DNA of 64,000 nt, taken from NCBI GenBank assembly GCA_964494915.1, contig CAZBTP010000001.1:6792-70791 (forward strand). The letters are read 5' to 3'. Source of the stretch: Candidatus Woesearchaeota archaeon. Lineage in GTDB: Archaea > Nanobdellota > Nanobdellia > Pacearchaeales > GW2011-AR1. The translations under genes were made by a program, and so were the position numbers. The notes under the pieces are model-generated. The model did no database searches and was not told the origin of the DNA. It saw only the letters and a list, made by a program, of their open reading frames with translations. Of the stretch, positions 10,576 to 64,000 are shown piece after piece. Positions within the stretch are counted from its first letter, which is position 1. Each line of letters opens with the position of its first letter.

Positions 10576-10983
10576 CTAGCTATTTTTCAATTCCTCGACA
10601 ATTTTTTTGCATTTTTCTATTGCTTGTTTTGCGGTTTCATAATCCATCCTGTTTCCGTAATAAGTAAGGGAGTTTCTTTTATACCTTAAGTCATCAATTA
10701 ATATATACAAATCCTCTCTTTTTAGAACATCCCTTAAATAATAACCTAAGCAAATATGGTTTAATATGTTGAATCCTTTTTTGAAAGCCATTGCCTGCAA
10801 TAATTCAAGCAATGAAGTATAATAATCTTCAAATATAAAATTGCAGTTTTTTTCATTCACTTCTTTAATTAAGTTCATTCTTTCGCTTGCAGTCTCTTGT
10901 AAAGATTCTGCTCTTTTTAGGTCAGGAGTTATAGTTTTAGCTGATTTATTGATTAAGCAATCATCCCAGTTTGCTTCTTTCAT
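10576..10983 (-). CDS. HEPN-domain protein (partner of the adjacent minimal nucleotidyltransferase)
   Basis: 135-aa helical protein overlapping by 4 nt (ATGA) with the upstream MNT gene. R-x(4-6)-H-like region LRYKRNSLTYYG. Typical MNT-HEPN pair arrangement. Confidence 0.55.
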   Translation of the reverse strand: MKEANWDDCLINKSAKTITPDLKRAESLQETASERMNLIKEVNEKNCNFIFEDYYTSLLELLQAMAFKKGFNILNHICLGYYLRDVLKREDLYILIDDLRYKRNSLTYYGNRMDYETAKQAIEKCKKIVEELKNS

Positions 10984-11662: not shown

Positions 11663-12403
11663 CTAATCCAGAACCTTTTCATTAATACCCTTCCACTCAC
11701 GAAAGGCTTTTTCATACCGCTCCCAGGTATCCGTTGGAAACCATTGTCCTTGAAACAAGAAACCCGCGAGCTGCCCCCGCGAGGCAAGAATCGGCCAAAT
11801 CTCTCGCTCAATCGAAACAGCCCTCTCTTCAGGAATCAGATCAATAACAGAAGGTTCTAGGACATACAATCCAGAGCTAATCAATTTGCTCGGTGCTTCA
11901 TGCGCGAGCGGCTTTTCCACAAATCTTTTTATTTTATTATCCTCAAGATCTGCAACCCCATAGCCTGTAATATCCTCAAGCTCCTTCAACGCAATCGTTG
12001 CCAACACGCCTTGTTGCGCATGAAAATCATGGAAGACATCAAGGTTAACATCCTTTAACTCATCGCCATTACACATATAAAACCTTTCTTTTAATAAGCC
12101 TCGAGCTAGCCGTAGTGCCCCTGCAGTTCCCATCGGCTGATTCTCAATAACATATCGTATCCGCACACCAAACCTTGAACCATCGCCAAAATACCGCATA
12201 AACTGCGACGCCTTATACCCGATCGCAAGAACAATCTCTTGAACATTGTGTCTCTTAAACAACTCAATCCCATGTTCCAGAATCGGCTTTCCATGAATTG
12301 GAATCATTAATTTTGCGACTTCATACGTTAACGGTCGTAACCGCGTTCCCAATCCTCCTGCAAGAATAAACGCCTTTGTTGGTGTTTCCATTACCACAAA
12401 CAA
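11663..12403 (-). CDS. sugar-1-phosphate nucleotidyltransferase (RmlA/GlmU-like NTP_transferase)
   Basis: FILAGGLGTRLRPLT G-rich loop. Probable true start at METPTK (about 12391). Confidence 0.85.
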   Translation of the reverse strand: MFVVMETPTKAFILAGGLGTRLRPLTYEVAKLMIPIHGKPILEHGIELFKRHNVQEIVLAIGYKASQFMRYFGDGSRFGVRIRYVIENQPMGTAGALRLARGLLKERFYMCNGDELKDVNLDVFHDFHAQQGVLATIALKELEDITGYGVADLEDNKIKRFVEKPLAHEAPSKLISSGLYVLEPSVIDLIPEERAVSIEREIWPILASRGQLAGFLFQGQWFPTDTWERYEKAFREWKGINEKVLD

Positions 12404-28132: not shown

Positions 28133-28427
28133 ACGTATCTACTTAGAATTATAAAGTTACGAGGACAACTTTATGTTACAACTTTGATAATGTCAAGATG
28201 TTACGACATCTTGAGCATGCTCAAGAACCGGGTGTTCTTGACATTGCTAAATTATCTCAATTACGAAAGATTTAATTTAATGAATGCTGATAATAATATC
28301 GAAGAAAAATATGATACCTTAGCTATTTTTTCAAGGTAAATTTTAAAGATTAGTAGATTTTAGCTTTACAAAGCTAAGCAATTACCAATAGACAAAACCT
28401 TATTAATACCCTCTCTCTTTTCTTACC

Positions 28428-35042: not shown

Positions 35043-35128
35043 CGTCCCGGAGAGGACTCGAACCTCTGACCCCATGGTGTCTGTACGACGATAACAGCCA
35101 TGTGCTCTGCCAGCTGAGCTACCGGGAC
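35043..35128 (-). tRNA. tRNA-Asn (anticodon GUU) with 13-nt intron after position 37
   Basis: Cloverleaf GUCCCGG-UA-GCUCAGCUGGCAGAGC-A-CAUGG[CUGUUA+UCGUCGUACAGAC+A]CCAUG-GGGUC-AGAGGUUCGAGUCCUCU-CCGGGAC-G. No CCA encoded. Confidence 0.75.
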
Positions 35129-35925: not shown

Positions 35926-36231
35926 TTATAACAATACCAACGCAAAGGGAATTCCCTGTACGTATCCTATATTTCCTCGAACAATAATTCCTACCTCAAG
36001 CGCGATCTGTACTGAATTTTTTCCAACAATATTAAACGTCGCGTCTTCCTGAGACTCGTGTTTCAGAATAGTTACAAGCTGTTCAGCGAATACTTCCTCG
36101 CCCTTATAAAAACCCTCACGTACATCAAGCTGTCGTTTTCCTTCTTCAAATTTTTTTCCGAGTAAATCAGCATCGCATACCGCCACAAGATGCCGATATT
36201 GCGTATATATCTTTAAAAAGAACCAGTGCTC
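35926..36231 (-). CDS. DUF424-family archaeal protein
   Basis: LKIYTQYRHLVAVCDADLLGKKFEEGKRQLDVREGFYKGEEV matches the DUF424 consensus (ICDEELLGK...EGFY.GE). Start taken at MEHWFF, shorter than track ORF 35926-36303. Confidence 0.5.
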   Translation of the reverse strand, partial: EHWFFLKIYTQYRHLVAVCDADLLGKKFEEGKRQLDVREGFYKGEEVFAEQLVTILKHESQEDATFNIVGKNSVQIALEVGIIVRGNIGYVQGIPFALVLL

Positions 36232-36288
36232 CATAGTGACATTTAAAAGCACTGCTTTAAATAAGTTACGCTCACCAGAAGAAAAGAG

Positions 36289-36816
36289 ATGGCACAACGA
36301 CATCGGTTACGTCATACAATCGTATTTACTATTTTGTTATTAGTTCTAATGCTTCTTATCTTGTCATATAGACATCTTTCGTACGCTGAACAAAGATCGC
36401 ACCCCCGAGAGAGTCGTGTTTTAAAAAATCCTGTCGAAGACCTAAGTGACGAAGAAGCAATTGCGCAGTTTAATGAAGACTTTGTTTTGTACCTATTATA
36501 CACAATAAAAGCACAGAGATTGCACAATCCTCCACTAAGCAAGAGTACGCCGAAAATAGAGGTTTTTGTTGACGAGGACGTGTATCGTGCAGAAGTTATC
36601 GATAACGTAATTTACGTTGGGCGCGGGCGTTTTTCTGCGAAAGATATTGTTATTACAACAAGTGCTCGAGAAGCAGTTCAGATGTTGCGTGATCAATCAC
36701 ATATTGTCGAATCGTTTGCACAAGGAAATTCGCATCTTGAAATCATCGAGGACAAAGTAACATTATTTGCAAAAGGATACCGAGAGATTCATAATGAAGT
36801 AACGAAAAAGACGTGA
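36289..36816 (+). CDS. hypothetical membrane-anchored protein
   Basis: N-terminal TM TIVFTILLLVLMLLILSY followed by a soluble domain. Confidence 0.4.
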   Translation: MAQRHRLRHTIVFTILLLVLMLLILSYRHLSYAEQRSHPRESRVLKNPVEDLSDEEAIAQFNEDFVLYLLYTIKAQRLHNPPLSKSTPKIEVFVDEDVYRAEVIDNVIYVGRGRFSAKDIVITTSAREAVQMLRDQSHIVESFAQGNSHLEIIEDKVTLFAKGYREIHNEVTKKT

Positions 36817-36929
36817 GTGCTTTTTTGCACATTTTATTCGCTACTCTTGCGGGTAACACAGATAGGGAAAGATTTAAAAATCTGATATTGTGGGTCTAAT
36901 ATATAGATTACAATATATAGATTATAACC

Positions 36930-37205
36930 ATGGATGAAACACGAGACAACTTCGACATCTTTTTCAGGCGAAAACCTGCGATGATGTTGGTTGCATTAAA
37001 GCGGATCACACGAGTACGTTACGGAAGCATACTTGCAAAGGAGGTTGACTGTACGTATAGTCATGCTGTCAAGATTCTGCAAAGCCTCGAGCGTTTAGGA
37101 TTGGTAATGTTTGAGAAGAAAGGAAGGATAAAGTTAATTAAACTTACAAAAAGAGGACAAGAAGTTGCTGAGAATATAGAGAATATTAAAAAATCAATTA
37201 GTTAG
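36930..37205 (+). CDS. winged-helix transcriptional regulator
   Basis: 91-aa wHTH-like YGSILAKEVDCTYSHAVKILQSLERLGLV. Its last 6 codons lie within the 72-bp direct repeat. Confidence 0.5.
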   Translation: MDETRDNFDIFFRRKPAMMLVALKRITRVRYGSILAKEVDCTYSHAVKILQSLERLGLVMFEKKGRIKLIKLTKRGQEVAENIENIKKSIS

Positions 37206-37256
37206 GACCTCGTTGCATAAAAGAGCGCCTGTGCTTAAATTGCCGCTGTCTCTTCA
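37185..37256. repeat. 72-bp perfect direct repeat, left copy, bracketing the HEPN-MNT cassette
   Basis: attaaaaaatcaattagttaggacctcgttgcataaaagagcgcctgtgcttaaattgccgctgtctcttca is identical at 37185-37256 and 38277-38348. Confidence 0.9.
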
Positions 37257-37268
37257 CTGTCATGATGT

Positions 37269-37754
37269 TTGAATGGCCCAGACGGACTTCGTGATAAAAA
37301 GTTTCAAAGTAGGGTAATCTCAACATCTTTGTTTTCTGGAAAGTTTTTTATACCGCCTCTTCTTAGATCAAAAATGAGAAAGGAAGTCGGCAATTGGTTA
37401 AAACAGGCAAATAAAGACTTAGAAGTAGCAGAAAAGAATATCAAAATTGAAGAATATTACTCTGCTGTTTTTTGGTGCCAGCAAGCTGTTGAAAAAGGAT
37501 TAAAAGCAGTATATATACTAAAACATAATACCTTGCCGCCAAAAATACACGACTTAGTAGAAATTTGTAGATTGGTAAAGGCACCAGACAACATAGTCTT
37601 GCTGTCCGGGAAGATCGTCACAGCATACATATTCTCACGTTATCCGGGGGCTGCTCCAGAGATGCCCGAAGACTATTATGACAAGGGCAAGGCAGAAGAA
37701 CATGTTAAAATAGCTAAGGAGGTTCTAGAATGGGTTATAAAACTGATAAAATAA
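37269..37754 (+). CDS. HEPN-domain protein
   Basis: FWCQQAVEKGLKAVYILKHNTLPPKIHDL, typical of the HEPN helical core. Start may be MRKEVGN at about 37374. Confidence 0.6.
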   Translation: MNGPDGLRDKKFQSRVISTSLFSGKFFIPPLLRSKMRKEVGNWLKQANKDLEVAEKNIKIEEYYSAVFWCQQAVEKGLKAVYILKHNTLPPKIHDLVEICRLVKAPDNIVLLSGKIVTAYIFSRYPGAAPEMPEDYYDKGKAEEHVKIAKEVLEWVIKLIK

Positions 37755-38047
37755 TTAATTCTTTTGTAAAAAAAGTTAGAAATAAGGTTCCTTCGTCAAG
37801 AATTTATTTATTTGGCTCTAGGGCGAGGGGAACTGCAAAAAAAGGTAGTGATTACGACTTCCTTATTATAAGTAAGGATTTCAGAAATTTTAATTTTGAA
37901 GAAAGATCTGCCAAGATTTATTTTCTAAAAAGAAAGATTCCTGCGGCGATGGATATTTTATGCTACACTCCAGAAGAATTTGAAAAAAAGAAAAAGCAGA
38001 TTGGTATTGTTAAAATCGCTGTTGAAGAGGGAATCGAGATAAAATGA
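37730..38047 (+). CDS. minimal nucleotidyltransferase (MNT)
   Basis: IYLFGSRARGTAKKGSDYDFLII (GS-x9-DxD). Overlaps HEPN gene end. Confidence 0.7.
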   Translation: MGYKTDKIINSFVKKVRNKVPSSRIYLFGSRARGTAKKGSDYDFLIISKDFRNFNFEERSAKIYFLKRKIPAAMDILCYTPEEFEKKKKQIGIVKIAVEEGIEIK

Positions 38048-38160
38048 TATTATTTTACTTTATTATCGGCTTGATTGAAATTCTATTATTTTTGTTCTTG
38101 TCGCTTAATGGAACTTATTTATCCAGATTATGTGTCCCTCTTGAAAAATTAGATTGTATT

Positions 38161-38277
38161 ATCAAAAAAACTTTGAGTTTTACCACACCTTAAAAGATGT
38201 GGTTTGTTAGTTTTTTGGATGCTCAAGGAACTTCCGCATCTTGAAAGGTGCGGTTTTCGTCAAGTTCCTTGACATAA
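38161..38277. repeat. structured repeat element, copy 1 (two nested hairpins plus ACAUAA tail); second copy at 60690-60807
   Basis: atcaaaaaaactttgagttttaccacacc..gtgg..gctcaaggaact.ccgca.cttgaaaggtgcggttttcgtcaagttccttgacataa is shared with 60690-60807 with about 5 differences, which are positioned to preserve pairing (G-U wobble). Confidence 0.75.
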
Positions 38278-38348
38278 TTAAAAAATCAATTAGTTAGGAC
38301 CTCGTTGCATAAAAGAGCGCCTGTGCTTAAATTGCCGCTGTCTCTTCA
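38277..38348. repeat. 72-bp perfect direct repeat, right copy
   Basis: Identical to 37185-37256. Its reverse complement encodes the C-terminal 19 aa of the Toprim ORF. Confidence 0.9.
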
Positions 38349-38724
38349 TCGTATTATCGAGGTTTTCTACCTTCGTCATAAAGTTATGAATGCCTTCGAT
38401 ATGCGGAATATTTGCTTTGATAAGAATGCCACGGAGTGCTGAATCAATGCGACACCCTAATTCCTGGAGAATTGGTTTGATTGTTTCGTAAAGTTTTCTC
38501 CCTCGTTTGTCAAGATCCGTAAGGATACAGATTTTCTCTTTTTTACCGAGTCCAGCGACAATTTCTTCGATTCTCTCTCTAAGAGGGACAGCTGTTTTGT
38601 GGATTGTATAGACTTTATCGAAACCAAAGAGACGGAGTGCATCCCTATCCTTTTTTCCTTCAACAAGAATAACGTACGCTTTGAAGGATTCAATTTCATT
38701 TCTGAGCCTTTGATTGAATTTCAT
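38290..38724 (-). CDS. small Toprim-domain protein
   Basis: VILVEGKKDRDAL...ICILTDLDKRGRKL matches the Toprim E...DxD pattern. C-terminus encoded inside the 72-bp repeat. Confidence 0.55.
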   Translation of the reverse strand: MKFNQRLRNEIESFKAYVILVEGKKDRDALRLFGFDKVYTIHKTAVPLRERIEEIVAGLGKKEKICILTDLDKRGRKLYETIKPILQELGCRIDSALRGILIKANIPHIEGIHNFMTKVENLDNTMKRQRQFKHRRSFMQRGPN

Positions 38725-38734
38725 GATATTTAAA

Positions 38735-38809
38735 TGGCCCCGAGGGGATTTGAACCCCCGACACCTGGATTAAGAGTCCAGTGCTCTAACCGGGCTGAGC
38801 TACGGAGCC
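38735..38809 (-). tRNA. tRNA-Lys (anticodon CUU)
   Basis: GGCUCCG-UA-GCUCAGCCCGGUUAGAGC-A-CUGGA-CUCUUAA-UCCAG-GUGUC-GGGGGUUCAAAUCCCCU-CGGGGCC-A. Confidence 0.85.
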
Positions 38810-38846
38810 TCACAAGAAGAAATTGAAAGCGATTTAAAAATCTATG

Positions 38847-39152
38847 TCAGCGATACACTCGCCAGGTATGATCGCACTTAGTACACTTATAGAATTTTGT
38901 TTCTGATTCGTCTGAGGAGCGGGTTTGTCGTGTCCAGAAATAACAAGTTTTGTTTTTACATTTAGGACATCTCATTTCGATTATTGGATAGATATTCTCC
39001 CCTTCCTTGATAACGACAACGGTTTCTGTTTTCCCAATTTTTTCCGATGCCTTTATTTTCAGTTTTTTTTGCGATCGGTGTCCACACCGTGCACACACCG
39101 CTTTTTCATCTTTTATAAGGAGCATACCACCGCATTTCTCACAAAATTCCAT
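38847..39152 (-). CDS. tfs: transcription factor S / RNA polymerase subunit M (TFIIS-type zinc ribbon)
   Basis: N-terminal CEKCGG...CARCGH ribbon and C-terminal CPKCKNKTCYFWTRQTRSSDESETKFYKCTKCDHTW. Confidence 0.85.
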   Translation of the reverse strand: MEFCEKCGGMLLIKDEKAVCARCGHRSQKKLKIKASEKIGKTETVVVIKEGENIYPIIEMRCPKCKNKTCYFWTRQTRSSDESETKFYKCTKCDHTWRVYR

Positions 39153-39219
39153 GTTCTTCTAACGAGATAGTACACTAAACTCTTATTTATACTTTTGGAA
39201 TACTGAGAAGTAGTACTCG

Positions 39220-39825
39220 CTACCTACAGAATCCACGTTGTGCAGCCTCACGAAATGGTTCAAAGAATATCAGCTTTATCCAGCCAAGAAGGGGTATTTT
39301 TATGATCGCTTTTCCCATAATTCTTTCAGGCAGGATGTTTGTCTCATCAATGTTCTGGTTATTAGTATTCCCCACAAGCTGTCCTGGGTTGTGATCTCCT
39401 TTTGTTGCTATCGGATCGGTAGTAACAATACGGTGAATAATTGGGTGTCTCGCGTTTGCTTCAGGATTCGCCTCAAAAACAATAACGTCTCCCACAATGT
39501 ACGATGATCTCCCCCATACCACAATAATATCTCCCTTTGTAAATCCGTTTCTTAAACGAAATGTCATAAACTCCTCTTCCGAAATGCCGTTTGTTTTGTA
39601 CCATTCAGCGTTCTTTGTCCACCACATTTCAAACCCTGATTCGTGGTACATGGAACAGGATTCTACAACGACGAGTGGTAAAGGGCTTGCCGTAATAAAG
39701 GAAAGTGTCGGGAAAAAGATAAAGCGTATAAGGACAACAATAAGAATAAGCGAAACGACCCAAGAATGCCAGCTGTCTTTTTTGAGGTAGTTCCAGAATT
39801 GTTGTATTCGTATTTTTAGGGCCAT
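39220..39825 (-). CDS. signal peptidase I, archaeal/Sec11 type (S26)
   Basis: Box B-like VVVESCSMYH, GDIIVV, IIHRIV, KGDHN boxes after an N-terminal TM. Confidence 0.6.
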   Translation of the reverse strand: MALKIRIQQFWNYLKKDSWHSWVVSLILIVVLIRFIFFPTLSFITASPLPLVVVESCSMYHESGFEMWWTKNAEWYKTNGISEEEFMTFRLRNGFTKGDIIVVWGRSSYIVGDVIVFEANPEANARHPIIHRIVTTDPIATKGDHNPGQLVGNTNNQNIDETNILPERIMGKAIIKIPLLGWIKLIFFEPFREAAQRGFCR

Positions 39826-39896
39826 AAGAGAGTATCGACTTAGATATTTATAAACTGTCGCCTCGCTGCACGCCTTTTCATCACCACGAATAAAAA

Positions 39897-39977
39897 TGGG
39901 GCTGCCGGGATTCCCGTAACGAGCTGTGCGAGTGAGGGCACCGCGGAGCTTTGCTCTGCGAGTGCGTGCGAATCCTA
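39897..39977 (-). other. 81-nt 3' trailer of tRNA-Pro ending in an exact 18-nt copy of the tRNA 3' end, followed by oligo-U
   Basis: atggggctgccgggattc occurs at 39895-39912 and 39981-39998. AAAAA at 39892-39896 gives U5 on the minus strand. Internal 10-bp inverted repeat gtgcgaatcc/ggattcgcac. Confidence 0.6.
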
Positions 39978-40051
39978 TGGGGCTGCCGGGATTCGCACCC
40001 GGGTCGCAAACCCCCGAAGCTTGAAGGTTAACTAAACTACCCCACAGCCCC
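39978..40051 (-). tRNA. tRNA-Pro (anticodon CGG)
   Basis: GGGGCUG-UG-GGGU-AGUUUAGUUA-ACCU-U-CAAGC-UUCGGGG-GUUUG-CGAC-CCGGG-UGCGAAU-CCCGG-CAGCCCC-A. The D-loop is atypical, hence moderate confidence. Confidence 0.55.
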
Positions 40052-40082
40052 GTAAGAAAAAGAGATTATTAGAGATTATAAA

Positions 40083-40153
40083 TGCGCTGACCGGGAGTTG
40101 AACCCGGGCGATCACCTTGGGAAGGTGACATCATACCGTTAGATCATCAGCGC
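40083..40153 (-). tRNA. tRNA-Gly (anticodon CCC)
   Basis: GCGCUGA-UG-AUC-UAACGGUAU-GAU-G-UCACC-UUCCCAA-GGUGA-UCGC-CCGGGUUCAACUCCCGG-UCAGCGC-A. Confidence 0.75.
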
Positions 40154-40215
40154 TTGAACACGTATGACCGTCAGTTTTAAATAACTTAGTATATGATAGA
40201 ATTGCTATTTATACA

Positions 40216-41049
40216 ATGGCACGTTTTCATGTACCAGATCTCGAAGAGCTTACTCGCGGCTATAATCCACGTTTTTTTAATGAACTCTGTCGAAAAGGAG
40301 AATGGGTATTACGAAGGCTCGTACAGGATTCTATTGTTACCGATAAGTACGGAACGTTTCGTTCATTAGCCGAAAATCCACGCCAGGCACTCCATCTAAG
40401 CAATCATCGAAGTCAGTATGATCCCTTACAGCAACTATTCACGTTTTGGAAGTACAGGGTAACAATACCAAGAATCGCAGCAGATAAGCACGCGTTTCTG
40501 CCAGGCATTGGAAGAATTTGGCGGCTTTGTGGTGCATTTGAACTTCCGACTGTTCGTAACGATATTAATGCGTTGAGGTCTCTATATTATATTTTTGATC
40601 GATTAGTCAAGGCAGGAGAGAGTATTTTCATGTATCCTGAAGGTAGTAGAAGTACTGATGGTTCTTTAAAAGAATTTCAAAGAGTAGCAATTCGTATTAT
40701 ACACCATCGCGTACAAGCCCATAAGAAAGAGGTGATTGTTGTCCCTCACTATATTACATACGATCATCCCATTGAAGAGAAGTATTTCCCTTATTTATTT
40801 CCTGAACGTTTTCCCGCAACAAAGAGAAAGCTACTTTCTCCAGCACAACGTCAGCGCGTTGAGCTGTATGCGTTTACAAACCGGTTTGTTCAAGGTCTTG
40901 TTGCTCCTCAAGGCGTTGTACTCCACGCCATCGGAAAATCGTTCTCTCTCAGCGAATGTGAAAATGAGGAAGCTGTGTGTAAACATGCCTACAATGCAAT
41001 CGATACTATGAGGCAAGACTATAAAGGAAAATTAGAGTATTGGCCCTAG
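40216..41049 (+). CDS. lysophospholipid/glycerol-phosphate acyltransferase family protein (PlsC-like)
   Basis: HX4D motif HRSQYD and FMYPEGSRS (PEGTR-like) block. Confidence 0.55.
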   Translation: MARFHVPDLEELTRGYNPRFFNELCRKGEWVLRRLVQDSIVTDKYGTFRSLAENPRQALHLSNHRSQYDPLQQLFTFWKYRVTIPRIAADKHAFLPGIGRIWRLCGAFELPTVRNDINALRSLYYIFDRLVKAGESIFMYPEGSRSTDGSLKEFQRVAIRIIHHRVQAHKKEVIVVPHYITYDHPIEEKYFPYLFPERFPATKRKLLSPAQRQRVELYAFTNRFVQGLVAPQGVVLHAIGKSFSLSECENEEAVCKHAYNAIDTMRQDYKGKLEYWP

Positions 41050-41093
41050 GGCTATAGTAGGTTTTATAAACGAATTGTTTTTTAGAGTCGTAA

Positions 41094-41168
41094 GATCGTG
41101 TAGCTCAGCCCGGTTAGAGCACTGCTCTGATAAGGCAGGGGTCCCCGGTTCAAATCCGGGCACGATCA
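41094..41168 (+). tRNA. tRNA-Ile (anticodon GAU)
   Basis: GAUCGUG-UA-GCUCAGCCCGGUUAGAGC-A-CUGCU-CUGAUAA-GGCAG-GGGUC-CCCGGUUCAAAUCCGGG-CACGAUC-A. Confidence 0.85.
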
Positions 41169-41561
41169 TGCATTCTTATCTTTTTTAAAATCAAGCGCGA
41201 GTGAGTTGATGCAATAACGTTCGCCAGTAGGATGTGGTCCATCATGAAAGAGATGACCAAGATGACTGCCACATTTTTTGCAGAGGACTTCTGTTCGAAT
41301 CATGCCATGCGAATAATCAGGTTTTGTTGTTACATTTTTTTTGTTAGAAGAGAAGAAACTTGGCCAGCCGCTACCAGAATCAAATTTTTTCTCTGATGAA
41401 AAGAGTTCTGCGCCACAGGCAGCGCATCGATAGCCACCGTGATCTTTATTGGAAAGAAGTTTCCCTGAAAACGCAGGTTCTGTCGCTTTCTGTCGCAGCG
41501 CTGCGTACTGTTCAGGAGAGAGTTTGTTCTTGAAAAAGGTTTCAGAGATCTTTTTTTTCAT
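41166..41561 (-). CDS. msrB: peptide-methionine (R)-S-oxide reductase
   Basis: Two CxxC pairs ([21 protein letters not shown]) and catalytic RYCINS. Confidence 0.9.
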
Positions 41562-41564
41562 TAG

Positions 41565-42245
41565 CTAGTGATTGTTAAACTCAACAAAGAGTTTGTTTTC
41601 TGAAATCATATAGCGTTTCATTGGAAGGTTAACAGGGATTGAGTTCACATAAACCTTCTTGTCACCAATTGCTTTTATTTCATAACCTGATTCAAGTCTC
41701 GAGACAAAGATATCATCGACCGATATGAGACCAGGAGTTGTTAGTTCGTAGACTATTTTATTACCAAGGCGTTTTACTGTTGTCTTTGCTTTTTCCTTTG
41801 GCAATTGAGCCATACGTTCGAGTTGTTCTTCAGAGATCTTTCTTTGTTGAGGCTGGTGTCTGTGTAATGAATTGGTATGGGGCGGTAGTTGACTCGTAAT
41901 CTTTATTCGCACTCCATTAGGGAGTGTTGTTATCTCTGCGTTGGCATCATTGAGCTCACGTTCCATCTCCTTCATTTGTTGTTTAAATTGCTTATCAAAG
42001 GATTTCATAATGCTATTGACAAGTGAATTAAATATTCTATCTGAGATTCCGAATCCTTCCGGAGAAGCAGCCTCATTCTCGGAGAGAGAAGAATCGTCTC
42101 TACCAAGGAGACCATAATCGCGCTGTTCTTTTTGATGATCGATAATAGTGTTCCCACAATATGGGCAGAACTTATAGTCCTGACCTGACAATTCTCCACA
42201 CTGATCACATCGCTTCTTGTTTTTTTTATTGAAAAGCATCGCCAT
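41565..42245 (-). CDS. zinc-ribbon protein with possible Hsp20/alpha-crystallin-like C-terminal domain
   Basis: N-terminal CDQCG...CPYCG ribbon. C-terminal beta-rich region IVYELTTPGLISVDDIFVSRLESGYEIKA...KLFVEF. Confidence 0.35.
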   Translation of the reverse strand: MAMLFNKKNKKRCDQCGELSGQDYKFCPYCGNTIIDHQKEQRDYGLLGRDDSSLSENEAASPEGFGISDRIFNSLVNSIMKSFDKQFKQQMKEMERELNDANAEITTLPNGVRIKITSQLPPHTNSLHRHQPQQRKISEEQLERMAQLPKEKAKTTVKRLGNKIVYELTTPGLISVDDIFVSRLESGYEIKAIGDKKVYVNSIPVNLPMKRYMISENKLFVEFNNH

Positions 42246-42297
42246 ATTAGGAGAGCAGTACTTTTAAACTTTCCGTCGATCCCACGCCATGGTTTTT

Positions 42298-43713
42298 TTA
42301 CGATTTATTCCTAAAGAGTACCCGAAACCAACCCATTTCTGCACGGATTGTTCTGAAAGGATGAGCAATGTGGACATGCATTGGTGGAAGACGTTCGACC
42401 TTGCGAACCTCTTCTACACGTGGAAGGAAGACGAGTGCGACACCAAGCCGAAGGAGCGAGGCTAAGATAAAGATGAGAAAGAATTTATTGAGCGAGAGCG
42501 TATTTGAAGGGAGGACAGAAAGAAGATAACCCCCAAGAATAGCGCCGAAGAAACTGCCAAGCCCAATAAGAACGTTCGTATAAGCGATACAGCGACCGCG
42601 TTTTTCTTGAGAGACAGCATCATAGGTAAAGTTCGTTGATGCGATAATGAATGCTGCGTTCGCAATACCTGCCACGAGTTGCGGTATAACAATCAGGTAG
42701 ATCGGATTCTTAGATATGAGCCAGAGAAGTGGTGTAAAAATAAAACATACGTTCGCGATAACCAGAAGGCGTGCGTTGCCATATCTATCCGAGAACTTGC
42801 CTGCAAGTGGTGTGAAGAGGAGGTAAAAGAGTGAAGAACTCATTGCGACAAGTGTATAGAGGAGATAGTTCTGATTATAGCCAAGTTCTTGGAGCATGTA
42901 GACCGCAAAGAATGGTGATGCGACCATAATTGCGAATTCGAAGAATGCCAAATACACAGAAAACCTTCCGTAATTATCAAAACGTTTTATAAATTGCCAG
43001 AATGAAAAATAGTTTGAACGATGGATCTTGAGCGGTGGTGCATAATGTTTCCGAAAACTTGCGAACGATAACATGCGGAAGAGAAATGCGAGGATAAATA
43101 AGATAAAAAAACCAATCATAATCCCTTCTTGTTCGAAGAAATCAAGGATAAATGCGCCCATAAGAAAGGTCACAAGGCTTACGATACCAGTAACAACATT
43201 TCGTTTGCTGAAATACCGACCACGATCTTTCTCAGGAACAAGATCACCCATCCAAGAATACCAAGCAGGAAATGCAAGTCCATTAAAGATACCAAGAAGC
43301 GTATAAGCGACAATAAGAAACAAGATAAAAAAAGGATTCTTCGTTTTTATATATGCAAAGATTGCAATCGCTGCGAGAACGAGCCACATACACGCATTAA
43401 GGAAAACAGAGGCGAGAACAATCTTTTTCCGTGGACTTCTCGCCATAAGAGAACTCCCCCGAAGTTGTGCGAGAGGTGACGCAAGCGCTGTGATCGCGCT
43501 GAGTAGACCAATATGGATTGGTTGTGCACCAAGTACGTCAGCAAAGGGCGTTATATATGAATCACCAGTTCCTGTTGCAACACTCGCCGCAGCACCTTCG
43601 TCCATACTGCGCCTAAGTGTTTTTTGCTTTTCGTGAACGACTTTGGTTGACGAACCTTTCACGTCTTTTTCAACCTCTTTTATATCAAGAATCTTTTTCG
43701 CTGGATTCTCCAT
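42298..43713 (-). CDS. MFS transporter
   Basis: About 12 predicted TM helices in a 6+6 layout with a cytoplasmic N-terminal extension. Confidence 0.7.
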   Translation of the reverse strand: MENPAKKILDIKEVEKDVKGSSTKVVHEKQKTLRRSMDEGAAASVATGTGDSYITPFADVLGAQPIHIGLLSAITALASPLAQLRGSSLMARSPRKKIVLASVFLNACMWLVLAAIAIFAYIKTKNPFFILFLIVAYTLLGIFNGLAFPAWYSWMGDLVPEKDRGRYFSKRNVVTGIVSLVTFLMGAFILDFFEQEGIMIGFFILFILAFLFRMLSFASFRKHYAPPLKIHRSNYFSFWQFIKRFDNYGRFSVYLAFFEFAIMVASPFFAVYMLQELGYNQNYLLYTLVAMSSSLFYLLFTPLAGKFSDRYGNARLLVIANVCFIFTPLLWLISKNPIYLIVIPQLVAGIANAAFIIASTNFTYDAVSQEKRGRCIAYTNVLIGLGSFFGAILGGYLLSVLPSNTLSLNKFFLIFILASLLRLGVALVFLPRVEEVRKVERLPPMHVHIAHPFRTIRAEMGWFRVLFRNKS

Positions 43714-43744
43714 GACGAGAAATAGAATCGTCGGTTAATAAAGA

Positions 43745-44434
43745 TTACCCAGCATCTAACTCTTTTTTTCTCCCTTTAAGTCGTTCTCTGACTGTTCTTA
43801 CTATCCCAGGTAATAGACTCTGTCCCTTTTCAAGTACATCTGGTTTCTTTCCCAAATATTCAAGATGGAGAATACTAAATGGAACTCCTCTGTAACGTGT
43901 ATCTCTACGTTTTCTTTGAGCATAGAGATGCTCTCCGATAGTGACTCGCGGATTCTCATCACGTTCTATTGGTGTTTGATATTCTATTTTTTCTCCTAAG
44001 AGGTGTAAAGAAAGGTTTCCTGTTTCTCTTTTTATTCTTCTGTTTATATGAATAACCATACCCATATAAAGCAATATGCATGGCTGAGAAACTCTGTCTA
44101 AACGATCAGCAACGCGTCGATAGGCAAGAATAACCTGATCTAATGCGAGCGCTCCTATTTGGGACTGAAACTCAAGAGCTCGGTCAGCATGAAAAGTCGC
44201 TCGTTGTTCTGCTGAGGCAAGTCTCCTTTTTGTTTCTCTGAGCGTTCCTTGATAGCTCGCCTCTACATCACGAAATCCCGCTTCCTGTCCTCTAATAACA
44301 TCCCGATAACGTTGATCGTGTTCATCAAGCCTTCGTTGATATGAGGGTGTCGATTGAATAAACACATCAAGACAACTTGCAGTTGTTCTAGTAAAGTATG
44401 TTACAACACCTCGAAGAAGACCGCGATAATCCAT
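43745..44434 (-). CDS. hypothetical Arg-rich protein
   Basis: 229-aa ORF, no domain recognised. Confidence 0.4.
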   Translation of the reverse strand: MDYRGLLRGVVTYFTRTTASCLDVFIQSTPSYQRRLDEHDQRYRDVIRGQEAGFRDVEASYQGTLRETKRRLASAEQRATFHADRALEFQSQIGALALDQVILAYRRVADRLDRVSQPCILLYMGMVIHINRRIKRETGNLSLHLLGEKIEYQTPIERDENPRVTIGEHLYAQRKRRDTRYRGVPFSILHLEYLGKKPDVLEKGQSLLPGIVRTVRERLKGRKKELDAG

Positions 44435-56861: not shown

Positions 56862-59693
56862 ATGGGAATAAAGAAAGTAAGTGAGAACGTCTGGGAAATC
56901 GAAAAAGAAGGAAGGATGCTAGTTCCAGGGATTGTGTTTGCCTCAGATAGCTTAATGGCTTCAATTCAAAAAGATAAGACACTCGAACAAGTGAAAAACG
57001 TTGCACAGCTTCCAGGAATTGTTGGATATTCTCTCGCGATGCCAGATGCACATCAAGGATATGGAATGGCTGTCGGAGGTGTAGCCGCGTTTGATTCCGA
57101 GCACGGAATTATTTCTCCCGGAGCAGTAGGTTATGACGTGAACTGCTTAACGGGCGATACAGAAATCCTTACAGAATTCGGAAATTCGATAAAAATTGAA
57201 GAATTTGAAAAATACAAATCAGAAATAGAAATTGAACAAAATAACCAAAAAATTAAAAAAATAATATTCTCGCGCAATCTGCCAACCTTAAACCTTGATA
57301 CAAAAAAAATAGAAGATAAATCTATTAATTTATTTATGTCAAGGCACGCGGAAGATGTATGTGAGATAACTTTAGCATCCGGCTTAAAAATTAAAGCTAC
57401 AAGCGATCATCCTTTTTTAACAAAACAAGGAATGAAAAAATTATCTGAATTAAAAGATAACACAGAACTAGCAATAAATACTTTTGAAGGAGTTGAATCC
57501 AGCGAAGTGATAAATGAAAAGGAAGCAATCCTTGCAAAGTTAATTGGTTATATGTTTGGGGATGGTTCCTTCTACGAAACAAAAGGAGAATTACGTGCGG
57601 TAGCTTATGGGCAAAAAGAAGACCTTGAAAAAATAAAGGAAGACTTATCAAGATTAGAAATAAATTCAAGTCTCTTTTGCAGAATAAGGGAGCATAAAAT
57701 ACAGACTCGTTATGGCGAAAAAAGTTTTAATTCTACAAACTGGGAGTTACATATTTATAATCAAGCTTTTCTTAAGATTTTAAAAGAAAGAGGTCTCACG
57801 TTAGGAAATAAAACAAGGCAGAAAATCAGGGTTCCCGAATGGATAAAAAAGTCAAGTAAATTAACAAAAAGATTATTTTTAGCTGGTTTTTTCGGCGCAG
57901 AAATGTCATCTCCTAAAACACTCTCTAGAACATGCTTTTGTAGCTCAACTATTAATCAGAATAAAATAACCTTACTAAAAAAAAACTGTAGAGATTTTCT
58001 TATAGACATCTCTCTGCTTTTAGAAGAATTTGGGATTAAAAATTACAAAATATCAGAGATGGAGGATTATATCAATAAATACAAAGAAAAAACATCAAGA
58101 TTAAGGCTAGCTTTATACGGAGAGGATACAATGTTAAAACTATGGAGAACAATAGGTTTTGAGTATAATAAAAAAAGACAGGACTTGGCAAACATAGCCT
58201 CTTTGTATATCTTACTAAAAAAGCAGGAAAATCAACGGAGGATTGAACTGGCTAGAAAAATAAAACAATACAGGAAAAATGGACTTACAATAGCAGAAGT
58301 AAAGGGACTCTTCCATAAAGAGATTAACGAAAGATTTATAGAAAGGCACTATTACGAAAATGCAAAACAAAGAATCAATCTTGATTTTATTACTTTTAAT
58401 GAGTTCAGAGATATAAAACTCAAAGAAATAAGAGAAATTGGGACTCTTCTTGACAAAATAATTTCTATTAAAAAGATAGAAGGCATACATAAAGTTTATG
58501 ATTTTAACATTCAGGATAATCATAATTTTATTGCAAATGGCTTTATAGTTTCGAATTGTGGAGTACGATTGCTTGCGACGAATATAACGAAAAAAGAATT
58601 TTTACCGAAACGAGGAATAGTATTAAATGAACTCTATAAGAATGTGCCGTCCGGCATCGGAAGAGGAACAGGAATAAAACTTTCAGATGCTGAATGTAAC
58701 GCGGTCTTAGAAAAGGGATTAAAATGGGCACGAGAAAAAGGATATGCGTCTGAGGAAGATATTGAGCACACAGAAGATAAGGGCTGTATTCAAGGAGCGA
58801 ATGCAGCAAAAGTTTCGCAAAGAGCAAAAGCAAGAGGCAGGGATCAGCTCGGGAGCATTGGGGCAGGAAATCATTTCCTTGAAGTACAAGAGATCGTGGA
58901 GATTTTTGATGATCGTGTTGCAAAAACGTTTGGATTAAACGAAGTCAAACAGATCGTAGTAATGATCCATACCGGCTCACGAGGGTTAGGACACCAAACT
59001 GCATCAGATTATATTATGAAAATGGAAAAAGAGTATGGATATAAACACCTTCCAGATCGCGAGTTGGCATATGCGCCAATTACTTCTGCTTTGGGAAAAG
59101 ACTATAGAGAAGCAATGGCGAGTGCTGCTAATTTCGCATTTACAAATCGGCAGATGATCACGCATCTTATAAGAAAAAGTTTTGAGAAGTATTTTCCAAA
59201 CGCGAAACTAAGCGTTGTGTATGATATCGCACATAATATTGCGAAGCTTGAGGAGTTCGAAGTCGAGAACGAGAAAAAAATATTGTGCGTACACCGAAAA
59301 GGTGCAACTCGATCATTTGGACCAGGAAGAAAAGAAATTCCGAGCGATTATAGAGAGGTAGGCTGTCCGATTTTTATTCCAGGAAGTATGGGAACATTTT
59401 CGTATGTCCTCGTCGGAACAAAGAAAGCACGTGAGATTTCGTTTGCGTCAACAGCCCATGGTGCTGGACGAATGCTATCAAGGACGTACGCAAAACAACA
59501 TATTTCTGCTGAGCATTTAAAACAAGGGCTAGCAGAAAGAGATATTATAATTAAAGCTGGATCGCTAAAAGGCATGATTGAAGAAGCGCCAGAGGCGTAT
59601 AAGGATGTGAGCGAGGTTGTTCGTGTTTCACATGCGCTCGGTATTGGAAGCGTAGTTGCAAAGCTGAAACCATTAGCCGTAATGAAAGGGTGA
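56862..59693 (+). CDS. rtcB: RNA-splicing ligase RtcB containing a 471-aa LAGLIDADG intein
   Basis: PDAHQGYG, GYDVN-CGVRL split by the intein, GAGNHF, HTGSRGLGHQ. Extein 472 aa. Confidence 0.9.
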   Translation: MGIKKVSENVWEIEKEGRMLVPGIVFASDSLMASIQKDKTLEQVKNVAQLPGIVGYSLAMPDAHQGYGMAVGGVAAFDSEHGIISPGAVGYDVNCLTGDTEILTEFGNSIKIEEFEKYKSEIEIEQNNQKIKKIIFSRNLPTLNLDTKKIEDKSINLFMSRHAEDVCEITLASGLKIKATSDHPFLTKQGMKKLSELKDNTELAINTFEGVESSEVINEKEAILAKLIGYMFGDGSFYETKGELRAVAYGQKEDLEKIKEDLSRLEINSSLFCRIREHKIQTRYGEKSFNSTNWELHIYNQAFLKILKERGLTLGNKTRQKIRVPEWIKKSSKLTKRLFLAGFFGAEMSSPKTLSRTCFCSSTINQNKITLLKKNCRDFLIDISLLLEEFGIKNYKISEMEDYINKYKEKTSRLRLALYGEDTMLKLWRTIGFEYNKKRQDLANIASLYILLKKQENQRRIELARKIKQYRKNGLTIAEVKGLFHKEINERFIERHYYENAKQRINLDFITFNEFRDIKLKEIREIGTLLDKIISIKKIEGIHKVYDFNIQDNHNFIANGFIVSNCGVRLLATNITKKEFLPKRGIVLNELYKNVPSGIGRGTGIKLSDAECNAVLEKGLKWAREKGYASEEDIEHTEDKGCIQGANAAKVSQRAKARGRDQLGSIGAGNHFLEVQEIVEIFDDRVAKTFGLNEVKQIVVMIHTGSRGLGHQTASDYIMKMEKEYGYKHLPDRELAYAPITSALGKDYREAMASAANFAFTNRQMITHLIRKSFEKYFPNAKLSVVYDIAHNIAKLEEFEVENEKKILCVHRKGATRSFGPGRKEIPSDYREVGCPIFIPGSMGTFSYVLVGTKKAREISFASTAHGAGRMLSRTYAKQHISAEHLKQGLAERDIIIKAGSLKGMIEEAPEAYKDVSEVVRVSHALGIGSVVAKLKPLAVMKG
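57144..58556 (+). mobile_element. intein with LAGLIDADG homing endonuclease in RtcB at the GYDVN/CGVRL site
   Basis: Starts CLTGDTEIL (block A), LIGYMFGDGSF and FLAGFFGAEMS LAGLIDADG motifs, ends IVSN followed by Cys. Terminal Asn is preceded by Ser rather than His. Confidence 0.85.
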
Positions 59694-59696
59694 TGT

Positions 59697-60425
59697 ATGA
59701 AGGTTATTATTGTTCGTAACAAAAACGAAGGAGGAGCACGTGCAGCAAAGCTCGTTTCCGATATTATTCAAAACAAAAAGAACTGTACACTCGGATTAGC
59801 GACAGGAAAAACAATGATTCCTTTTTATCGAGCGCTCATCAGCGCGGCGCATACAAAGAAGATAGATTTTTCTCGAGTAAAGACCTTTAATATTGATGAG
59901 TTTTATGGTCTAAACACTCCCGAGAAGGGAAGTTTTCGACATTTTATGGATTCACATTTTTTTCACAGAGTAAATATAAGCAAGAAAAATATTCATTTTT
60001 TAGATGGGAAAAAAAAGGATTATAAAAAAGAGTGTAACGAATACGAACGTGCAATAAAACACAAGGAGGGAATCGATATAGCAATCGTGGGTATCGGAAA
60101 AAACAGGCATATTGGTTTTAATGAGCCCGGATCGTCTTTTGCAAGCAGAACGCGAAAAGTGAGATTGCGCGATGAAACACGGCACGCAAATGCCTGGCTG
60201 TTTGAATCCTTTTCGCGCGTGCCTCAGTATGCGCTAACAATGGGTATTGAAACAATACTCGCTTCACGAAAGATTATCTTGTTAGCCTTCGGAAAAGAAA
60301 AAGCAACTGCTGTTGCAGCCACCTTCAAGCATGTCACACAACAAGTGCCAGCGAGCGTCCTACAACGTCATACTAATGTAACGTTTATTATCGACCGCGC
60401 GGCAGCCAAGCGCGTGTTTAAATAA
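59697..60425 (+). CDS. nagB: glucosamine-6-phosphate deaminase/isomerase family (NagB-like)
   Basis: TLGLATGKTMIPFY, FNIDEFYGL, GIGKNRHIGFNEPGSSFASRTR. Confidence 0.85.
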   Translation: MKVIIVRNKNEGGARAAKLVSDIIQNKKNCTLGLATGKTMIPFYRALISAAHTKKIDFSRVKTFNIDEFYGLNTPEKGSFRHFMDSHFFHRVNISKKNIHFLDGKKKDYKKECNEYERAIKHKEGIDIAIVGIGKNRHIGFNEPGSSFASRTRKVRLRDETRHANAWLFESFSRVPQYALTMGIETILASRKIILLAFGKEKATAVAATFKHVTQQVPASVLQRHTNVTFIIDRAAAKRVFK

Positions 60426-60429
60426 TCCC

Positions 60430-60672
60430 TTGACAATACAATACAATACAATGAAAAAAGTTGTATTTACATTCACAAACGCCCTCTACCCAACACAAAA
60501 GATAATAAAAGAGATAGTATTTAGTGACGATATTATTTCCTCACGCTATTGGTCACTTCAATTATCGAGCGTGTCAGGATTAACACCGGGTCAATATGCA
60601 CTCTCAATAAAAGCCTACAACAGAGAATATATTTCCTCTCCTCCAATAACACTAACATTAACGCTAACCTAA
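60430..60672 (+). CDS. hypothetical small protein
   Basis: 80-aa ORF 5 nt after the nagB stop. Confidence 0.3.
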   Translation: MTIQYNTMKKVVFTFTNALYPTQKIIKEIVFSDDIISSRYWSLQLSSVSGLTPGQYALSIKAYNREYISSPPITLTLTLT

Positions 60673-60689
60673 GTCTCTTTTTTTGAACA

Positions 60690-60807
60690 ATCAAAAAAAC
60701 TTTGAGTTTTACCACACCTTAAAAAGTGTGGTTTGTTAGTTTTTTGGACGCTCAAGGAACTACCGCACCTTGAAAGGTGCGGTTTTCGTCAAGTTCCTTG
60801 ACATAAC
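60690..60807. repeat. structured repeat element, copy 2
   Basis: See copy 1 (38161-38277). Both hairpins are perfect here (ccacacc/ggtgtgg and ccgcacc/ggtgcgg inside caaggaact/agttccttg), followed by ACAUAA. Confidence 0.75.
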
Positions 60808-62639: not shown

Positions 62640-62760
62640 ATAATAGTTTCTCTGTAAAACTAATTATCAAGAAAAGTTAATTTTTTAGTTAAGATAACTC
62701 CCTTTAACTTGACAGCTCAAGCCAAGAGCATGTTTAAATAATCTCTCGACAATATAATAA

Positions 62761-64000
62761 AATGAAAAAAAGAGGTAAAAAGTTGTATAAGTTGTATATC
62801 CTCTATGCCCTAGGTACAGTTCTTCTTCTCACGCTCATAATCTTTGGAATAACCAAAGGAACTATTCACGGAGCATACACGATCGATACAGATGAATATT
62901 TTAATCCTGGTCCTGGTTTATTAGGACTACGCCAAATATCGCGAGAGTACTTCGGTGCTGAGGATTATGTAGTTCTAGCAAAAGAAGGAGATATAAGGAT
63001 CGAGAAAATAACTGAGTATATAATACTCTCAACTAGGACGCCAACAACAACTGTATTTCAAAACTCGTATATTGAGAAACGCGTATCGATAAAAGAATGG
63101 CTTGGGTCAACAGCGAGTCTAATAAAACAATATAATTCAGTAGAAATTCGTGCTAGCTCAGGTAGACTGCTGATAGAGTATAGCGAAAATGATAGGGCAG
63201 CACAACATAGAGGTAAAGTTGAAAATAAAATGCTAATAGAATACCAAGGAGGGATAGTAAAAAGATTTGAAAAAGAGGTTAAGGACTATATTATAGCGGG
63301 TGAGATACCACCAGTGCAATACACACCTCCAGCCTCACTAGACGATCCTAATCTTGAATTAGAGAGTAAATATGTCGAGATAGTTGAATATGACCCTACA
63401 ACAAGCGCTACTGCTTGGAATGATGATCCCCTCAACTTATTTACACGCGGTGATCTGGTTGGGAAACTAAAAAAATACATTCAAGAACATACAGTCTACG
63501 GTTTTAGGACACCCTATCCAGATTTCATTTTAATAACAGATGGTTTAATACAGCATGACGAACGTAGAAAAAAAGAGTATAACCCTCCAGGAATAATCGC
63601 GACATATGACCATACAAAAAGGGAATATACGAAACCACCGACTTTCCCAAATCCTCCGCTTTCACGGAGCCAGCAAAAATTAAAGAAGTATATAAACGAA
63701 CAGACTATTTACCATCCAAATGGTCCAATATATAAACACAGTTCTACTTTAGAAGACTATGATGATAACGGAGTGCCAAAAAGCTCAATAATAAAATCAA
63801 TTCATAATAACGATAAGGGCCAGAACTTTTATAACTATCAGACAAAGAAAACATATGATGAGAACGGAAACCTCATTGAAGAGAAAAAGACAGAAAAGCA
63901 AAATGACGAAGCGACATTAAAGAAACAAAGTTATCTCCATAGCGAAGAAACACCTCAAAAAACATATACATTCAATAAAAGGTGGTATCTTGATACAGCA
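62761..64000 (+). CDS. hypothetical membrane-anchored protein (3' partial, continues past window end)
   Basis: ATG at 62761, N-terminal TM LYILYALGTVLLLTLIIFGI, and over 410 sense codons without a stop in an AT-rich region. Confidence 0.45.

Follow-up and report, generated by a model that had tools for sequence, protein, structure and literature searches.

Modular hairpin repeats dispersed in Pace-/Woesearchaeota-type archaea, probably a non-autonomous palindromic DNA family

The stretch of DNA analysed here, referred to as the window, comprises 64,000 nt of the archaeal contig CAZBTP010000001.1 (positions 6,792-70,791; assembly GCA_964494915.1) and carries two copies, A and B, of a 117-nt element composed of two hairpin modules, U1 and U2. 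Comparison with other assemblies, whose loci and contigs are labelled L001 and so on, showed that the elements are a lineage-restricted dispersed family of Pace-/Woesearchaeota-type DPANN archaea, and that the fold of the element is under selection. We consider the family to be probably a non-autonomous palindromic DNA repeat, resembling repetitive extragenic palindromic (REP) sequences, bacterial interspersed mosaic elements (BIMEs), BOX elements and the miniature transposable elements with inverted repeats known as MITEs. A sequence-only reading of the window had offered a candidate small RNA or, alternatively, a repeat family or MITE end, and the latter alternative was essentially right, as the copies belong to a dispersed multi-copy family in DPANN archaea.

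Two copies of a folded element in the window

The two copies and their parts are listed below; R1 designates the family model.

38161-38277, plus strand: copy A, U1 and U2 modules (family-model score 154 bits with R1; U2 model 82 bits)
60690-60806, plus strand: copy B, U1 and U2 modules (family model 154.7 bits; U2 model 84.5 bits)
38161-38220, plus strand: U1 of copy A, outer A/T stem CAAAAAAACT/AGTTTTTTG
38183-38204, plus strand: U1 inner hairpin of copy A, ACCACACC-TTAAAAG-ATGTGGT, then TTGTT
38219-38277, plus strand: U2 of copy A, with the foot ATG-C-TCAAGGAACT at 38219-38232
38234-38253, plus strand: U2 inner hairpin of copy A, CCGCATC-TTGAAA-GGTGCGG
38254-38262, plus strand: U2 bulge of copy A, TTTTCGTCA
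38263-38272, plus strand: U2 3' arm of copy A, AGTTCCTTGA, then the end CATAA
60748-60806, plus strand: U2 of copy B, parts as in copy A at an offset of +22529

Copies A and B are 95.7% identical over 117 nt, with five substitutions in a gap-free alignment. A repeat search of the window pairs 38154-38277 with 60683-60806 (124 nt, 94%), and the narrower limits used here were set by the part that is common to relatives elsewhere. The sequence-only reading had located both look-alike copies correctly, and the layout it described (an A7 tract, a first hairpin, a T-rich linker, an outer stem with an inner hairpin, a bulge on the 3' side and an ACATAA end) was seen again; its length of about 108 nt has to be replaced by the 117 nt of the family-defined element, and the 1-nt loop indel that it reported between the copies consists of two adjacent substitutions. 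In U2, an outer stem (TCAAGGAACT/AGTTCCTTGA) of 9-10 bp encloses an inner hairpin of 7-8 bp, leaving 8-9 nt (TTTTCGTCA) unpaired on the 3' side only. Compared with dinucleotide shuffles, the fold reached z values of -4.5 to -6.0, with none of 200 shuffles being as good for either strand of either copy. An independent assembly from another sample (L001) is 100% identical across 36194-44023, indicating that the local arrangement around copy A is not an assembly artefact.

A family shared by genomes with diverged proteins

A 21-mer covering the U2 bulge and 3' arm (TTTTCGTCAAGTTCCTTGACA) gave 19 exact matches at 18 loci in six species-representative metagenome-assembled genomes (MAGs), all six labelled Pacearchaeota, Woesearchaeota or Nanoarchaeota, and one of these MAGs has seven matches on four contigs and hence at least seven copies. 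A covariance-model search across relatives, as the sequence-only reading had proposed, was performed with copies A and B as the basis of the model; it recovered the 21-mer loci plus further copies at 23-98 bits, and the count of two copies has grown to dozens of family members in other genomes. The pattern AAGGAACN{18,30}GTTTTCGTCAAGTT matched 38 metagenome contigs, 34 of which were confirmed by the covariance model. This pattern left the last 11 nt of the element unconstrained, and the free end nonetheless reads CCTTGACAT[A/C/G]A in every model-confirmed metagenome contig. Three patterns run against IMG/VR gave either no match or 18 chance matches, none of which fits the family model. A scan of the element against Rfam found nothing at the gathering threshold or above noise at a permissive threshold, where the sole match was a yeast snoRNA model (12 bits, E=9.9).

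The proteins encoded at element-bearing loci are just 40-67% identical to those of the window, and genomes this far apart agree fully in the U2 foot, bulge and end. These parts of U2 are thus conserved far above the genome background, a conservation that is partly imposed by the search patterns, with the 5' module and the terminal 11 nt being free of that bias; likewise, the bulge TTTTCGTCA is invariant in about 60 copies, being partly fixed by the patterns. For full elements, mean identity is 90% when both come from one genome and 77% when they come from different genomes, the inner-stem variant is specific to each genome, and nearly identical U1 modules were found in unrelated flanks of the same MAG. 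No description of the family was found in the literature, the supplementary MITE lists of PMC11602168 lying outside that search; this MITE census places a Woesearchaeal genome among the MITE-densest archaea, with no description of families (PMC11602168).

A more distant relative was found within the window itself.

28188-28246, no strand assigned: head-to-head pair of simple family hairpins, ATGTCAAGATGT-TACG-ACATCTTGAGCAT and ATGCTCAAGAAC-CGGGT-GTTCTTGACAT

This site had been noticed earlier as a third, more diverged locus. It is a true relative because the U2 model matches it at 24.4 bits on the minus strand and 23.2 bits on the plus strand (E about 1e-4, one hairpin per strand) and because both hairpins carry the common foot GCATGCTCAAG...CTTGACAT.

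Modular architecture

In the element, the 5' hairpin U1 is followed by the 3' hairpin U2 with its variable inner stem, the near-invariant bulge TTTTCGTCA and the end CTTGACATAA. The foot of U2 has the form ATG-C-TCAAGGAAC ... GTTCCTTGA-CAT with a bulged pyrimidine. U1 is three-tiered in most other genomes (ATCAAAAAGACGA/TCGTCTTTTGGAT; GCGCC/GGCGC; ACCTCGCC-TTAAAA-GGCGAGGT, then TTGTGAC), and it is the middle tier (GCGCC/GGCGC) that is missing in the window copies. Optional small hairpins (CTCAAGAAC-loop-GTTCTTGAG) sit between the modules, replace parts of them, or lie inside the loop of the U1 inner hairpin, the last arrangement being found at L006 4752-4968 and 5249-5470. Mosaics were seen in L006, L009 and L016, and short chimeras, in which a 5' U1 half is fused with a 3' U2 half, in L010 and L015.

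The inner hairpins of U1 and U2 have the common form ACCnnnnCC-loop-GGnnnnGGT-TTT, and when the U2 model is applied to copy A, its inner part fits the U1 inner hairpin and 3' flank at 19.3 bits without a change of orientation. That U1 and U2 are inverted copies of one unit was considered and rejected, since direct alignments score equal or better and the U2 model matches U1 directly; the relationship is probably direct rather than inverted. The minus strand matches the plus-strand family model at 40-44 bits because the element is palindromic.

Selection on the fold leans toward DNA

Among 18 distinct U2 sequences, 94.4% of the cells are paired and nine pairs have changed on both sides. None of 500 shuffles reached the paired percentage, the count of double-sided changes or the covariation score, and slid controls were 31-40% paired. 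The U1 modules of other genomes (12 sequences) behaved similarly, with 92.4% of the cells paired and 11 pairs changed on both sides; no shuffle out of 500 reached the paired percentage or the covariation score, one equalled the count of double-sided changes, and slid controls were 30-48% paired. The inner stems that replace one another include CCGCACC/GGTGCGG, CCACACC/GGTGTGG, CTCCACC/GGTGGAG, TCTCCAGC/GCTGGAGA, GCGCCC/GGGCGC and CCTTGCC/GGCAAGG. The fold of the element is under selection.

The sequence-only reading had already argued for selection on structure, on the grounds that the differences between the two window copies preserve pairing. The conclusion stands for the fold by virtue of the cross-genome covariation, and the two window copies fail as evidence for it. 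Judged against the family structure, only the C/T difference at 38240 keeps a pair, as G-U, and the other four of the five differences give a mismatch in one copy or the other: GA versus AG at 38196-38197 produces one C.A mismatch per copy in the U1 inner stem, T/C at 38220 removes a foot pair in copy B, and T/A at 38233 leaves a T.T in copy A. In the copies from other genomes, covariation of the U1 and U2 modules is strong.

An RNA made from one strand is expected to tolerate G.U but not A.C. In the variable stems, G.T and A.C mismatches number 13 and 10, respectively, in U2 (raw counts that take in four chance pattern matches) and 5 and 5 in U1. Four loop types occur, each in both orientations (TTAAAA/TTTTAA, CTAAAG/CTTTAG, ATAAAT/ATTTAT and TTGAAA/TTTCAA), and L056 and L073 are alleles that are otherwise identical with an inverted loop (TTTTAA versus TTAAAA). 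Such loop flipping is the behaviour of a DNA palindrome. No promoter travels with the repeat, because the flanks are unrelated from the first base outside it. Taken together, these observations lean toward a constraint that acts on DNA, or at least not on any single transcribed strand.

Turnover at the two window loci

Both window sites were compared with the sister species GCA_964413975.1, whose Toprim protein is 76% identical and whose empty site at the copy A locus is L041. The features around copy A are as follows.

37185-37256, plus strand: left 72-nt direct repeat (family D10, 100%), the last 21 nt of the helix-turn-helix (HTH) gene plus Toprim 3'-tail sequence
37257-37326, minus strand: remnant of a Toprim-gene 3' region, diverged, with CTTCGTGATAAAAAG where the intact gene has CTTCGTCATAAAG (comparison of open reading frame (ORF) tails and alignment)
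37374-37754 and 37730-38047, plus strand: HEPN and MNT nucleotidyltransferase toxin-antitoxin pair (Pfam matches)
38277-38348, plus strand: right 72-nt direct repeat, encoding the Toprim C-terminal tail

Copy A forms the final 117 nt of a segment of 1020 nt (37257-38276), in which the HEPN-MNT pair also lies and which has the perfect 72-nt direct repeat on both sides. The 72-nt repeat holds the overlapping 3' ends of two convergent genes, the HTH gene at 36930-37205 and, on the minus strand, a Toprim/RNase M5-like gene at 38290-38724, and in the sister species these two genes overlap directly without the 1020-nt segment. The end of copy A is the insertion boundary, because the element end and the start of the right repeat overlap by a single A. 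From the remnant at the left repeat we infer a Campbell-type integration of a circle that carried a homologous stretch. The order HEPN-MNT-element recurs in an unrelated population (L076/L072). The Toprim/RNase M5-like protein has 144 aa, most of roughly 140 homologues having 122-123 aa, and the 72-nt repeat codes for its extra C-terminal tail, which overlaps the convergent HTH gene at the end of the latter.

The situation of copy A is not generalised here, because a long repeat was found at only one of the 23 copies checked, namely copy A, and because another repeat-flanked insertion in the window lacks an element; long flanking repeats were accordingly rejected as a general feature of the family. 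The second insertion is marked by a 59-nt direct repeat (6426-6484 and 11665-11723, 95%) that corresponds to the 3' end of an NTP_transferase gene (11663-12403, minus strand) and brackets 5.2 kb with the gene of a 1232-aa repeat-rich protein and an MNT-like gene (10980-11513); a scan of the window with the family model found no hairpin element in it.

Copy B is flanked by a 73-codon ORF and a PIG-L/glycosyltransferase pair, and the gene pair is kept in the sister species. The sister species becomes homologous to the window again at 60803, within the ATAA that ends copy B, and upstream of this point neither covariance model found an element there. A decayed relic at the sister-species site is a tentative proposal: a candidate trace with 15 of 24 ungapped matches and an exact AAGGAACT was seen, to which neither model nor blastn lent support. 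The sister species is thus without a recognisable element at both corresponding sites.

Genomic placement

For 36 elements both neighbouring genes were called, and 11 of these elements are tandem-sense, 12 tandem-antisense, 8 convergent and 5 divergent, a distribution close to the intergenic background of the same loci (62% tandem, 15% convergent, 23% divergent). At least one gene 3' end faces the element in 31 of the 36. The neighbours are mostly housekeeping genes, such as those for ribonucleotide reductase, pyruvate phosphate dikinase (PPDK), a transketolase-like protein and a helicase, and the commonest neighbouring family in a Pfam search, the MNT-type nucleotidyltransferases, accounts for 4 of 107 neighbour proteins. 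The flanks of 39 elements show no target-site duplication, and no element position was found conserved between genomes, the two candidate cases placing the element on opposite sides of a homologous gene. Element orientation relative to local GC skew was 26 versus 16 (binomial p=0.16), a comparison confounded by gene orientation.

Some members lie directly at tRNA gene 3' ends. At L016 7014-7240 the element begins at the last base of a tRNA-Gln, a tRNA-Leu is flanked by two copies at L006 4752-5470, and at L005 831-1104 a 14-nt tRNA 3'-end repeat lies 42 and 19 nt from the element, with its second copy 19 nt beyond it.

Several short-read contigs (L003, L047 and others) end inside or just before an element, so the element breaks short-read assemblies, and it may cause chimeric joins. 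L072 and L076 have one flank in common and diverge exactly at the element end; these contigs and the similar L052/L053/L075 were not counted as signs of recombination, since short-read assembly can produce chimeric joins at a repeat of 120 nt. Several called ORFs run through the element.

A probable palindromic DNA repeat and its putative partner

If the family is a non-autonomous palindromic DNA repeat, as we think probable, each genome would generate and homogenise its own copies, and single sites would lose theirs again. Single-stranded DNA would fold into the hairpins, and an enzyme whose gene lies elsewhere in the genome would recognise the invariant foot, bulge and 3' end, by analogy with IS200/IS605 and the palindrome-associated transposable elements (PATEs), or with REPs and the REP-associated tyrosine transposases (RAYTs). 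Effects on neighbouring transcripts, if any, would be secondary.

Several points weigh against such a repeat. No transposase, integrase or HUH-type gene was found beside the two copies, in about 320 kb of flanks, or among roughly thirty scanned of the about fifty larger ORFs of the window; the HUH...Y motif is absent from 1250 flank ORFs, and the 25 best-represented Pfam families of the 107 neighbour proteins include no RAYT/Y1 family. All-against-all clustering of the neighbours gave no recurrent gene beside the elements. Transposition was not directly observed, and the divergence of the L072 and L076 flanks may be an assembly chimera. Furthermore, selfish repeats do not usually keep an unpaired tract and their ends so strongly conserved over family-level divergence, and a host function would fit this as well.

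A bolder version of the proposal, to which we assign a rather low probability, takes the family as the DNA half of an archaeal counterpart of REPIN-RAYT or integron systems (REPINs being paired REP hairpins), that is, as a lasting population of vertically inherited, folded single-strand recognition sites served by an enzyme that is neither RAYT nor IntI. Such an enzyme would copy the sites, which would also serve it as joints when small accessory cassettes, HEPN-MNT for example, are moved, and the 3' end of copy A would therefore lie exactly at the boundary of an insertion flanked by 72-nt repeats.

The invariant foot, bulge and 3' end, combined with covarying stems, imply a specific partner that reads the fold. 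DPANN genomes are about 1 Mb in size and are thought to be streamlined, and structured dispersed repeats, much studied in bacteria, have hardly been described in them. Because the family breaks assemblies and can inflate gene calls, a covariance model would aid the annotation of MAGs. RAYT-type Y1 proteins have been reported from bacteria only (PMC6006769), and a partner of this kind would be new for that reason.

Alternative readings

A cis-acting element, namely a bidirectional terminator, insulator or stabilising hairpin borne on untranslated regions and kept for the closely packed genes of DPANN archaea, seems unlikely to us. Terminator, insulator and stabilising roles have been shown for some REP/BIME elements, and the present family has features in keeping with them: U1 is an A-tract/hairpin/T-tract unit (CAAAAAAAC...GTTTTTTG), so that a T run follows the hairpin on either strand, a terminator-like site was called within U2, a co-oriented gene precedes both window copies, a gene 3' end faces the element in 31 of 36 cases, and the strong conservation is compatible with a host function. 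However, 5 of the 36 elements lie between divergent gene starts in a distribution close to the intergenic background, neither orientation is preferred (11 sense, 12 antisense), the wobble counts favour neither strand, element positions differ between genomes, and the sister species lacks both copies. Oligo-T suffices for archaeal termination, and oligo-T alone leaves the invariant bulge and end unexplained. The simplest form of this explanation, which the sequence-only reading had named among the conditions that together would refute its own proposal, makes the copies plain terminators of the upstream genes; it fits the two window copies and was rejected for a family that occupies all four gene contexts (11 sense, 12 antisense, 8 convergent, 5 divergent).

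Somewhat less likely again is a recombination site delimiting mobile cassettes, an analogue of attC or att sites that a recombinase would read as a folded hairpin and whose 3' end would be the cassette boundary. At the base level, the 3' end of copy A adjoins the right 72-nt repeat and the sister species has an uninterrupted site; at copy B, the sister species is homologous again no more than 4 nt from the element end, and the HEPN-MNT-element order was found again in another lineage. Co-oriented clusters of element, gene and element occur in L006, L014, L008, L079 and L074, and U2 has two stems, AAC/GTT beside the internal loop and a variable terminal hairpin. Yet the cores depart from attC (AAGGAAC/GTTCCTT against the consensus RYYYAAC/GTTRRRY), cassette-like bias toward a co-oriented upstream ORF is missing (11 sense versus 12 antisense), the majority of copies are solitary, just one of the 23 copies checked has a long flanking repeat, the repeat-flanked window insertion at 6426-6484/11665-11723 has no element, and no integrase was found in the searched flanks.

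A stand-alone small RNA gene family, for example archaeal H/ACA pseudouridylation guides with UUUUCGUCA as the would-be rRNA-pairing stretch, is largely refuted and highly improbable, even though the fold is stable and covaries and nearly all copies show a lower stem of 9-10 bp, an internal loop, an upper stem and ACA directly after the stem. In real H/ACA guides the pocket differs between paralogues; here its 5' side has 0-2 nt and its 3' side, TTTTCGTCA, is invariant in the about 60 copies (with the search-pattern caveat given above). A GA-type kink-turn (K-turn) or K-loop is not conserved, the upper stems being plain Watson-Crick and the loops (TTGAAA/TTAAAA/ATAAAT/CTAAAG) varying and flipping, and within ACAUAA the CAU is base-paired, across a bulged C, to an AUG lying upstream (pairs 3-60, 4-59 and 5-58, 89-100% paired). 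Moreover, no promoter is carried along, there are at least seven copies per roughly 1-Mb genome in random orientation, and curated H/ACA covariance models gave no match at the gathering score. The guide suggestion of the sequence-only reading does not survive a one-sided invariant pocket, the lack of a conserved K-turn, a paired CAU and the absence of an Rfam family. There are no rRNA genes in the window or the retrieved loci.

Other features of the window

One further site was compared with the family.

62667-62712, plus strand: candidate degenerate miniature relative, TATCAAGAAAAG...AACTTGACAG (only 8.2 bits with R1, E=9)

The case for this site as a family relative is weak. It adjoins the copy at 62720-62763 of a 44-nt repeat (60404-60447 and 62720-62763, 86%), which consists of the last codons of a glucosamine-6-phosphate deaminase gene, a TTTAAATAA box and a pre-ATG region; the end of the deaminase gene in the sister species differs from that in the window.

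Two large paralogous genes on the minus strand (3104-6319 and 6663-10361) contain 8-9 tandem units of about 400 nt and have near-identical 3' ends (repeat families D1-D9); their products are probably surface proteins. The RtcB gene at 56862-59693 encodes 943 aa including an intein with a LAGLIDADG-type region, and the RtcB of the sister species has 472 aa and no intein. An ARAGORN call of a 'tRNA-Stop (tta)' at 35043-35128 (minus strand) proved to be an ordinary intron-containing tRNA-Asn(GUU) rather than a suppressor, because the Rfam alignment shows an anticodon stem CAUGG/CCAUG with the loop CU-GUU-A, plus an insert of 14 nt. At about 36000-37000 the cumulative GC skew reaches its minimum and the skew changes sign, and genes of the same orientation differ in skew across this region, which might be a replication origin or terminus.

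Comparison with known systems

Like REP/BIME and REPIN-RAYT systems, the family consists of short imperfect intergenic palindromes in many copies and both orientations, with mosaics and head-to-head dimers (28188-28246), conserved unpaired nucleotides beside a stem, genome-specific variants and no target-site duplication. Unlike them, it resides in an archaeal host, has no GTAG tag and no flanking Y1 gene that we could find, and its units are larger (55-60 nt, two-tiered) and nested, the copies seen so far numbering tens, not hundreds. A conserved CGTC is present in the unpaired tract of U2 in a geometry that differs from that of the CGTC-REPs (PMC3733652).

The IS200/IS605-derived PATEs are comparable in having two related subterminal hairpins in the same orientation, short conserved tails and no target duplication, and IS200-type TnpA is present in archaea (PMC6006769). 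By contrast, our elements have no conserved 4-5 nt target on their 5' side, the left flanks being variable, no TnpA or TnpB was found nearby, and no full-length parent with such ends was seen. Classical MITEs derived from DDE transposons differ in that target-site duplications are absent here and the ends (ATCAAAA.../...TTGACAT) are only loosely inverted.

Integron attC sites, including those of archaeal integrons (PMC9668308), share the folded two-stem site with a variable terminal hairpin, a similarity that is higher within than between genomes, an association with toxin-antitoxin genes and, in one copy, a location at an insertion boundary, but the cores depart from the consensus, there are no arrays beside an integrase and no ORF orientation bias. 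Archaeal H/ACA guides are likewise hairpins that contain an internal loop and have ACA after them. The present element differs in its one-sided, invariant loop, its lack of a K-turn and its partly paired ACA, and it is multi-copy, promoterless and without an Rfam match.

The BOX elements of Streptococcus pneumoniae are modular boxA-boxB(n)-boxC repeats. They resemble the present elements in being built of modules, the conserved 5' and 3' ones enclosing internal ones that vary in number, and in their strong predicted fold, intergenic dispersal and lack of an encoded protein; they differ in that sequence and host domain are unrelated and that the small hairpins of our family sit inside larger loops. 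Among the defining features of these systems, GTAG and a fixed target were not seen, and TnpA, RAYT and IntI were not found in the searched flanks and neighbours. The family behaves like bacterial REP/BIME, REPIN, BOX or PATE elements, yet the sequence or enzyme features that define each of them were not seen in it, and it represents a new family within a class of objects that is already known.

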